From the NCBI RefSeq assembly GCF_003334305.1, contig NZ_QOWS01000006.1: 64,000 nt of DNA; one strand, 5' to 3'. Positions 24,825 through 30,504 of the stretch are shown piece by piece. A model generated the notes under the pieces. It saw only the letters and a list, made by a program, of their open reading frames with translations. It did not search any database and was not told the DNA's origin. Each line of letters opens with the position of its first letter. Positions within the stretch are counted from its first letter, which is position 1. Both the position numbers and the translations under genes were made by a program. Source of the stretch: Escherichia coli. GTDB lineage: Bacteria; Pseudomonadota; Gammaproteobacteria; Enterobacterales; Enterobacteriaceae.

Positions 24825-25661
<837 letters not shown>

Positions 25662-26065
25662 CCACAAAATATTTGTTATGGTGCAAAAATAACACATTTA
25701 ATTTATTGATTGTAAAGGGCTTTAATTTTTGGCCCTTTTATTTTTAGTGTTATGTTTTTAAATTGTCTATAAGTGCCAAAAATTACATGTTTTGTCTTCG
25801 GTTTTTGTTGTTTTAATGTAAATTTTGACCATTTGGTCCACTTTTCCCTACTCGCTTTTATTTCATGCAATCTTCTTGCTGCGCAAGCGTTTTCCAGAAC
25901 AGGTTATATGATCTTTTTGCCGCTTAATGCCTGTAAAACATGCATGAGCCACAAAATAATATAAAAAATCCCGCCATTAAGTTGACTTTTAGCGCCCATA
26001 TCTCCAGAATGCCGCCGTTTGCCAGAAATTCGTCGGTAAGCAGATTTGCATTGATTTACGTCATC

Positions 26066-26108
26066 ATTGTGAATTAATATGCAAATAAAGTGAGTGAATA
26101 TTCTCTGG
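26066..26108 (+). promoter_or_regulatory. carAB promoter P2 with tandem ArgR operators (ARG boxes)
   Basis: tgtgaattaatatgcaaa and agtgagtgaatattctct, each close to the ARG-box consensus tnTGAATwwwwATTCAnw, immediately upstream of carA. Confidence 0.55.
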
Positions 26109-26116
26109 AGGGTGTT

Positions 26117-27265
26117 TTGATTAAGTCAGCGCTATTGGTTCTGGAAGACGGAACCCAGTTTCACGGTCGGGCCATAGGGGCAACAGGTTCGGCGGTTGGG
26201 GAAGTCGTTTTCAATACTTCAATGACCGGTTATCAAGAAATCCTCACTGATCCTTCCTATTCTCGTCAAATCGTTACTCTTACTTATCCCCATATTGGCA
26301 ATGTCGGCACTAATGACGCCGATGAAGAATCTTCTCAGGTACATGCACAAGGTCTGGTGATTCGCGACCTGCCGCTGATTGCCAGCAACTTCCGTAATAC
26401 CGAAGACCTCTCTTCTTACCTGAAGCGCCATAACATCGTGGCGATTGCCGATATCGATACCCGTAAGCTGACACGTTTACTGCGCGAGAAAGGCGCACAG
26501 AATGGCTGCATTATCGCAGGCGATAACCCGGGTGCGGCGTTGGCGTTAGAAAAAGCCCGCGCGTTCCCAGGTCTGAATGGCATGGATCTGGCAAAAGAAG
26601 TGACCACCGCAGAAGCCTATAGCTGGACACAAGGGAGCTGGACGTTGACCGGCGGCCTGCCAGAAGCGAAAAAAGAAGACGAGCTGCCGTTCCACGTCGT
26701 GGCTTATGATTTTGGTGCCAAGCGCAACATCCTGCGCATGTTGGTGGACAGAGGCTGTCGCCTGACCATCGTTCCGGCGCAAACTTCTGCGGAAGATGTG
26801 CTGAAAATGAATCCAGACGGCATCTTCCTCTCCAACGGTCCTGGCGACCCGGCCCCGTGCGATTACGCCATTACCGCCATCCAGAAATTCCTCGAAACCG
26901 ATATTCCGGTCTTCGGCATCTGCCTCGGTCATCAGCTGCTGGCGCTGGCGAGCGGTGCGAAGACTGTCAAAATGAAATTTGGTCACCACGGCGGCAACCA
27001 TCCGGTTAAAGATGTTGAGAAAAACGTGGTGATGATCACCGCCCAGAACCACGGTTTTGCGGTGGACGAAGCAACATTACCAGCAAACCTGCGTGTCACG
27101 CATAAATCCCTGTTCGACGGTACGTTACAGGGCATTCATCGCACCGATAAACCGGCGTTCAGCTTCCAGGGGCACCCTGAAGCCAGCCCTGGTCCACACG
27201 ACGCCGCGCCGTTGTTCGACCACTTTATCGAGTTAATTGAGCAGTACCGTAAAACCGCTAAGTAA
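26117..27265 (+). CDS. carA: Carbamoyl-phosphate synthase small (glutaminase) subunit
   Basis: ORF 26090..27265; a 382-aa product ([12 protein letters not shown]...) requires the TTG at 26117 as start; glutamine amidotransferase GICLGHQ motif. Confidence 0.93.
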
Positions 27266-27282
27266 TCAGGAGTAAAAGAGCC

Positions 27283-30504
<3,222 letters not shown>

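Follow-up and report, generated by a model that had tools for sequence, protein, structure and literature searches.

The arginine operator and the UUG initiation codon of carA in an Escherichia coli genome window

The carAB locus and its relation to K-12

The DNA considered here is a 64-kb stretch of an Escherichia coli genome, referred to throughout as the window, in which the gene order is rihC, dapB (24840-25661), carA and carB (27283-30504). The features of the carAB locus, with their positions in the window, are the following.

25982..26010, plus strand: promoter P1 (pyrimidine-controlled), with a -35 element TTGACT (25982-25987), a 17-bp spacer and a -10 element CAGAAT (26005-26010), found by promoter scan
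26017..26069, plus strand: P1 start (the G of GTTTGCC, corresponding to K-12 29551) and ES003, a short transcript of 53 nt initiated at P1, by match to Rfam RF02750
26051..26080, plus strand: likely promoter P2 (arginine-controlled), with a -35 element TTGATT (26051-26056) and a -10 element that is either TTAATA (26074-26079) or TAATAT (26075-26080)
26068..26085, no strand assigned: ARG box 1, TGTGAATTAATATGCAAA, with 1 mismatch to the consensus, overlapping the P2 -10 element and start site
26089..26106, no strand assigned: ARG box 2, AGTGAGTGAATATTCTCT, with 3 mismatches, separated from box 1 by the 3-bp spacer TAA (26086-26088)
26090..26092, plus strand: GTG that opens the mechanical 391-aa ORF, not a start codon, and equal to positions 2-4 of ARG box 2
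26107..26111, plus strand: Shine-Dalgarno sequence GGAGG, 5 nt upstream of the TTG, by its duplex with the 3' tail of 16S rRNA
26117..26119, plus strand: supported initiation codon of carA, TTG, by RefSeq, the PDB chain, orthologs, the Shine-Dalgarno sequence and a review (PMC6245113)
26117..27265, plus strand: carA, glutamine-hydrolysing carbamoyl-phosphate synthase small subunit, 382 aa and a stop, by TIGR01368 and PDB 1cs0_B
27283..30504, plus strand: carB, the large subunit, with an ATG start, beginning 17 nt past the carA stop

In a genome comparison positions 25662-27300 match E. coli strain H15 at 100% identity, and all 5426 of 5426 complete E. coli genomes contain this stretch. Identity of at least 99% over these surrounding 1.6 kb is found in just 616 of the 5426; over the 101 bp from 26060 to 26160 it is found in 5424, with 2 genomes falling below. 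Coordinates in the window equal those of K-12 MG1655 minus 3534, and a base-by-base comparison of 24840-27432 with K-12 gave 44 differences, none of which lies between 25921 and 26310. The sequence running from P1 through P2 and the operator to the start of carA, together with the first 64 carA codons, is therefore the very sequence that has been studied experimentally in K-12, and experiments on K-12 are directly applicable to it. The differences flank this identical block of 390 bp on both sides, with 25 upstream (24926-25920) and 19 downstream (26311-27411).

The product of carA is readily assigned, with a full-length match to TIGR01368, the curated CarA equivalog model, at 507.5 bits (cutoff 307.35) and a further match to NF009475 at 429.8 bits against 221. 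The class I glutamine amidotransferase catalytic Cys-His-Glu motifs are seen in the translation as GICLGHQ and GHPE. Position 1 of the TIGR01368 profile aligns with residue 5 of CarA, and PDB chain 1cs0_B aligns over residues 1-382 (E = 1e-260), as does 1bxr_B end to end, the chains of the crystallised small subunit having been deposited as MIKSALL... The sole difference of this CarA from the crystallised and K-12 protein is Asp139 to Gly; codon 139 (26531-26533) is GGC in this strain, where K-12 and every crystallised chain have Asp.

Upstream of this region, at 25690-25745 on the plus strand and just past the dapB stop, there is a match to the Rfam DapZ family that falls below threshold (27.4 bits, gathering score 56) and covers model positions 21-78. 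DapZ is an sRNA derived from the dapB 3' UTR in Salmonella, and the match here probably reflects only the terminator part of the model.

The initiation codon of carA

Read from the TTG at 26117-26119, the carA frame runs for 382 codons to the stop at 27263-27265, and RefSeq places the start of carA at this TTG both in H15 and in K-12 MG1655. Pairing of the GGAGG at 26107-26111 with the 3' tail of 16S rRNA is predicted at -9.8 kcal/mol, as compared with -8.4 kcal/mol at the 1st percentile of the window background. The original prediction had proposed that a 382-aa CarA begins at this TTG, and on this point the RefSeq annotation, the 382-residue crystallised chain, the Shine-Dalgarno sequence, the TIGR01368 profile with its beginning at residue 5 and the orthologs all agree.

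The comparative evidence comes from a sample of one genome per species, collected with a degenerate pattern for carA codons 36-54, that yielded at least 120 loci, of which 111 could be analysed. An ortholog alignment had been named in the original prediction as the test of its start codon, and in the alignment TTG stands invariant at the aligned start in all 19 of the 19 Enterobacterales listed. Across the Proteobacteria the aligned start codon is TTG in 56 of the 111 analysable loci, and, among the matches listed, 54 of these 56 have a Shine-Dalgarno core, and in 18 the TTG is the sole in-frame start codon past the upstream stop. Neither CTN nor TTA was seen at the aligned start position among the loci listed; leucine has six codons, yet TTG is invariant, and it is therefore read as an initiator and not as a sense codon. 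TTG is also given as the carA initiation codon in the review (PMC6245113), and the carA gene of A. baumannii has likewise been described with a TTG start (PMC12525168). A full-text literature search for the N-terminal peptide of CarA found no paper. Taken together, the comparative and thermodynamic evidence supports TTG 26117 as the start of carA, with a predicted product of 382 aa.

Two other codons in the same frame have to be weighed against it. The ATT at 26120, directly after the TTG, was reportedly put forward by Piette and co-workers in 1984 and has a history as an alternative to UUG. It would use the same Shine-Dalgarno sequence, at a spacing of 8 nt and with the same duplex of -9.8 kcal/mol; however, the second codon varies freely among codons for Ile, Asn, Thr, Ser, Arg and Glu (ATT, ATA, AAT, ACA, ACT, ACG, AGT, AGC, TCC, AAC, CGT, CGA and GAA, most of which are not start codons) whilst the TTG that precedes it is invariant. 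As codon 2 is variable, ATT 26120 is excluded, by comparative evidence only, and we regard translation from it as very improbable; the review names TTG as the carA start (PMC6245113).

The second alternative is the GTG at 26090, at which the program-made ORF list opens the carA frame, since it is the first start-type codon past the preceding in-frame stop (TAA, 26075-26077); translation from it would give a CarA of 391 aa with the N-terminal extension VSEYSLEGV. The frame from this position is open in 16 of the 19 Enterobacterales listed, and in Acerihabitans and Ca. Pantoea persica there is an in-frame ATG at the same position, so that an upstream start is formally possible in those two. Against this, the GTG has no Shine-Dalgarno pairing (duplex +0.4 kcal/mol), a transcript from P2 would begin only ~6 nt ahead of it, and both the RefSeq annotation and the PDB chain are of 382 and not 391 aa. 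Its conservation is explained by constraint at the level of the DNA, as it occupies positions 2-4 of ARG box 2. The codon exists because the N of box 2 and the TG of the TGAAT half-site happen to be read as a triplet, and the apparent peptide YSLE.V is conserved because it is the in-frame reading of TATTC, which forms the right half of box 2, and of GGAGG, the Shine-Dalgarno sequence. Furthermore, the frame is lost in relatives: a TGA interrupts it in Klebsiella BIGb0407, an insertion of 1 nt does so in Yersinia aldovae, the position is GCG in Photorhabdus, and beyond the Enterobacterales the upstream peptide is unconserved, with stops 3-9 codons upstream in many loci among the matches listed. 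Even within the species, E. coli B REL606 has CTATGGA-GGTG where the window has CTCTGGAGGGTG, a deletion of 1 nt between the GTG and the TTG after which the GTG no longer lies in the carA frame; the annotated start of carA in REL606 is nevertheless the TTG. Translation from GTG 26090 is thus effectively refuted and extremely improbable, in keeping with the original prediction, which had held the start in the ORF list unlikely to be the real one.

The REL606 locus (L123, NC_012967.1 33516-33915, aligned to 26104-26111) has two further features of its own, as the deletion improves the Shine-Dalgarno sequence to GGAGGT with a spacer that is 1 nt shorter, and it also creates a small out-of-frame ORF that begins with ATG and reads MEVF before its stop.

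Promoters and the ArgR operator

Of the two promoters, P1 was called by the promoter scan, and both of its hexamers fall within conserved blocks of the 19-species alignment. Its initially transcribed run (26012-26023; columns 68-78 of alignment A1) reads GCCGTTTGCC in Escherichia, Citrobacter and Enterobacter. In Serratia, Yersinia, Pantoea and Photorhabdus it is either CCCAATTTGCC or GCAATTTGCC, with a different start context but with the T-run that serves UTP-sensitive reiterative transcription still present.

The transcript ES003 matches Rfam RF02750 at 26017-26069 with 87.4 bits against a gathering score of 37. It has been reported at K-12 29551-29603, with a start identical to the mapped transcription start site (PMC4676190, Table 3), and to be 133-fold down in stationary phase (PMC4676190). 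In the window its 5' end coincides exactly with the P1 start and its 3' end falls within the first one or two bases of ARG box 1. Instead of an independent sRNA it may be a fragment of the P1 leader, left where transcription stops or the RNA is processed at the ArgR operator. No Rfam cis-regulatory family matched the carA leader, ES003 and the sub-threshold DapZ match being the only Rfam matches obtained.

The hexamers of P2 were not called by a simple promoter scan, having only 8 of 12 matches. The P2 start lies 67 nt downstream of the P1 start according to the review (PMC6245113), which from a P1 start at 26017 places it at ~26084, and TTGATT with TTAATA or TAATAT are the likely hexamers. 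TTGAT and TGAATTAATATGC are invariant in the 19 Enterobacterales listed. Relative to the P2 start, box 1 would extend from ~-16 to +2 and box 2 from ~+6 to +23. The text of the review has the boxes overlapping the -35 element (PMC6245113), whereas the count here places them over the -10 element and the start site.

The ARG boxes were scored against the published consensus WNTGAATWWWWATTCANW over the whole 64-kb window. Box 1 is the best consensus match in the window, and box 2 follows exactly 21 bp past it, which leaves the 3-bp spacer; at this distance the two boxes lie on the same face of the helix. The pair has a mismatch sum of 4, where the next best pair with the 21-bp spacing in the window sums to 9, and no pair with a mismatch sum of 6 or less was found in 3.2 Mb of first-order Markov sequence of the window composition. 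With an expectation of 1.4e-4 per 455 nt of AT-rich intergenic composition, the pair is the only one of its kind in the 64 kb and far above chance. It is found at -49 (plus or minus 1) from the TTG in all 19 Enterobacterales listed, with mismatch sums of 4 to 6, and among the loci listed a pair with a mismatch sum of 7 or less occurs in no other sampled taxon. In the alignment of these 19 species the core of box 1 (26070-26082) is invariant, and in box 2 the consensus positions TGA..T...TATT are conserved with variation at non-consensus positions. A third box placed 21 bp past box 2 (26110-26127) was considered and is a poor match by eye.

Operators of the ArgR regulon consist of two 18-bp imperfect palindromes that lie 2-3 bp apart and overlap the promoter, giving a site of 39 bp (PMC4381063). 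For the operator of carAB P2 in particular, the review describes two 18-bp ARG boxes 3 bp apart that are bound by one hexamer, with ~50-fold repression of P2 and with the binding of ArgR and that of RNA polymerase mutually exclusive (PMC6245113), and the operator is described elsewhere as "partially overlapping the promoter" (PMC2952853). It has been footprinted and genetically dissected in E. coli (PMC2952853, PMC6245113). The boxes at 26068-26106 are, as the sequence supports, the known ArgR operator of carAB P2, the binding data being those of the K-12 literature and the sequence being identical. Both of the ARG-box-like 18-mers that the original prediction had placed over the promoter are matched by these boxes, one of its coordinates needing correction as box 1 begins at 26068 and not at 26066; the fit that it drew with the known arginine and pyrimidine control of carAB is borne out by the operator in the literature (PMC6245113, PMC2952853) and the K-12-identical sequence. 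That the 18-mers are instead chance matches in AT-rich promoter DNA which do not bind ArgR is vanishingly improbable, for whilst single consensus matches with 3 mismatches or fewer are not above chance (12 observed, 7.1 expected) and box 2 on its own is a weak match, the two boxes at their proper spacing form the only such pair in the window at an expectation of ~1e-4, are kept at the same position in 19 species listed with their variation at non-consensus positions, and lie in the K-12-identical stretch 25921-26310 that includes the P2 operator on which binding work has been published.

With the boxes read as the ArgR operator, the region would work as follows. When arginine is abundant, one arginine-bound ArgR hexamer would occupy 26068-26085 and 26089-26106 cooperatively, as described in the literature. 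The boxes would then cover the -10 element of P2, its start site and the first ~20 transcribed bases, and RNA polymerase would be kept off P2. Transcripts from P1, starting at 26017, would read through the operator even when it is bound, again as the literature has it. On either transcript ribosomes would dock on the GGAGG at 26107-26111 and start at the weak UUG at 26117 to make the 382-aa CarA, and the in-frame GTG at 26090 would be an unused by-product of the TG of an ARG-box half-site. We hold this account as a whole, of ArgR boxes over P2 and a 382-aa CarA made from a weak UUG behind a strong Shine-Dalgarno sequence, to be almost certainly correct.

Conservation of the carA 5' end and the place of the locus among known systems

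The 5' end of carA is also conserved at synonymous positions. At columns where the amino acid is invariant in the Enterobacterales, synonymous codon identity is 0.77 in carA codons 1-65 (26117-26311) as against 0.55 in the rest of the gene (p = 1e-10), and the same test on carB gave 0.63 against 0.59 (p = 0.08), the effect being absent at the 5' end of that gene. The stretch from the Shine-Dalgarno sequence to codon 13 is nearly invariant in the Enterobacterales listed, and the rare codons CTA6, GGA12, CGG18 and ATA20 are retained in carA.

Several candidate explanations were considered. A conserved RNA structure was rejected as unsupported, as the 243 nt of P2 leader and 5' coding sequence fold no better than shuffled versions (z = +1.26; 178 of 200 shuffles are equally or more stable) and the covariation term from RNAalifold was only -1.03, with compensatory change in one of 53 pairs. 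The hairpin at 26137-26155 (GGUUCUG/CGGAACC) is invariant in the Enterobacterales and therefore carries no covariation signal; its 3 synonymous-site pairs are kept in 12 of 27 cases of the LVLEDGT peptide in other taxa by hand count, against a chance level of ~0.375, and the hairpin is not supported. An overlapping antisense gene, in the form of a minus-strand ORF at 26219-26431, was rejected, since 5 of 15 species have in-frame stops in it. As to selection for an open initiation region, opening the native sequence from the Shine-Dalgarno sequence to +13 costs 7.9 kcal/mol, and 14%-18% of synonymous variants are at least as open; 99.5% of variants drawn from carAB codon usage are more structured at the 5' end than native carA, which fits the general effect of AT-rich 5' ends. 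A general effect of the 5' end on codons was reportedly described by Eyre-Walker and Bulmer in 1993, and the simplest explanation of the synonymous conservation is such an effect with the weak start amplifying it.

Non-AUG starts predominate among the carA loci listed from Gamma- and Betaproteobacteria. When the in-frame start with the best Shine-Dalgarno sequence was chosen at each of the 111 loci listed, it was TTG in 74, GTG in 30 and ATG in 7, that is, non-ATG in 104 of 111, these counts being of raw loci (L003-L122) with no phylogenetic correction. At the same loci the start of carB is ATG in 71 of 75 cases, GTG in 4 and TTG in 0, among the matches listed. The spacing GGAGG-N5-TTG is widely conserved among the carA loci listed. 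One locus in the sample, L023 (CAMDRJ010000232.1), is labelled as a Klebsiella pneumoniae MAG; judged by the CarA N-terminus (…SPSQAVLALADGSVFRGQALGAPG…) and the region upstream, it resembles betaproteobacterial and not enterobacterial loci, and the contig is probably mis-binned.

A weak start codon is also known from infC, where it is AUU, and carA resembles infC in keeping a weak initiator across species beside a good Shine-Dalgarno sequence; we know of no autoregulatory mechanism for carA.

The closest known system is that of K-12 itself, the carAB P2 operator and UUG start (Piette et al. 1984; Charlier et al. 1988, 1992; PMC6245113), with which the control region here is the same throughout, in the ARG boxes, the Shine-Dalgarno sequence, the TTG, the P1 start and the 382-aa product, and from which the protein differs only at Asp139 to Gly. 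The carAB control region of Salmonella typhimurium (Kilstrup et al. 1988; Lu et al. 1992, as cited in PMC6245113) has the layout common to the 19 Enterobacterales listed; Salmonella lies outside the sample, and the nearest genera within it, Citrobacter and Enterobacter, differ only upstream of box 1. More widely, the operators of argCBH/argE, argF, argI, argA and artJ, amongst others, also have two 18-bp palindromes, 2-3 bp apart, over the promoter (PMC4381063). Unlike these other ArgR operators, that of carAB acts on just one of two tandem promoters, the downstream one, and P1 reads through it (PMC6640053).

The observation on the carA TTG start and the operator is, in all its parts, established knowledge of E. 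coli carAB and already known, and nothing is added here to the established cumulative control of carbamoyl-phosphate synthesis by arginine and pyrimidines. There is however a lesson for annotation, in that taking the longest ORF gives the wrong start when the operator's own TG half-site makes a false in-frame GTG, and the real start of carA, a weak TTG, is revealed only by the Shine-Dalgarno sequence, orthologs and experiments.

The non-ATG starts of carA and the synonymous conservation at its 5' end are side observations that are possibly new, and the only part of this work that may go beyond the textbook is the conservation of a non-AUG carA start across the Proteobacteria, a literature search having found no paper that states how widespread such starts are. 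It may be, as a tentative and rather doubtful suggestion, that the weak non-AUG start of carA is ancient and selectively maintained in Gamma- and Betaproteobacteria and no peculiarity of E. coli, with an as yet undescribed layer of translational control that limits or tunes synthesis of the small subunit. What would point that way is the contrast between the start codons of carA and carB, taken together with the nearly invariant initiation region of carA in the Enterobacterales and with the synonymous constraint over its first ~65 codons, which carB lacks. If so, such control might act by way of subunit stoichiometry, for instance, or of start-codon discrimination that depends on IF3 or on growth rate.
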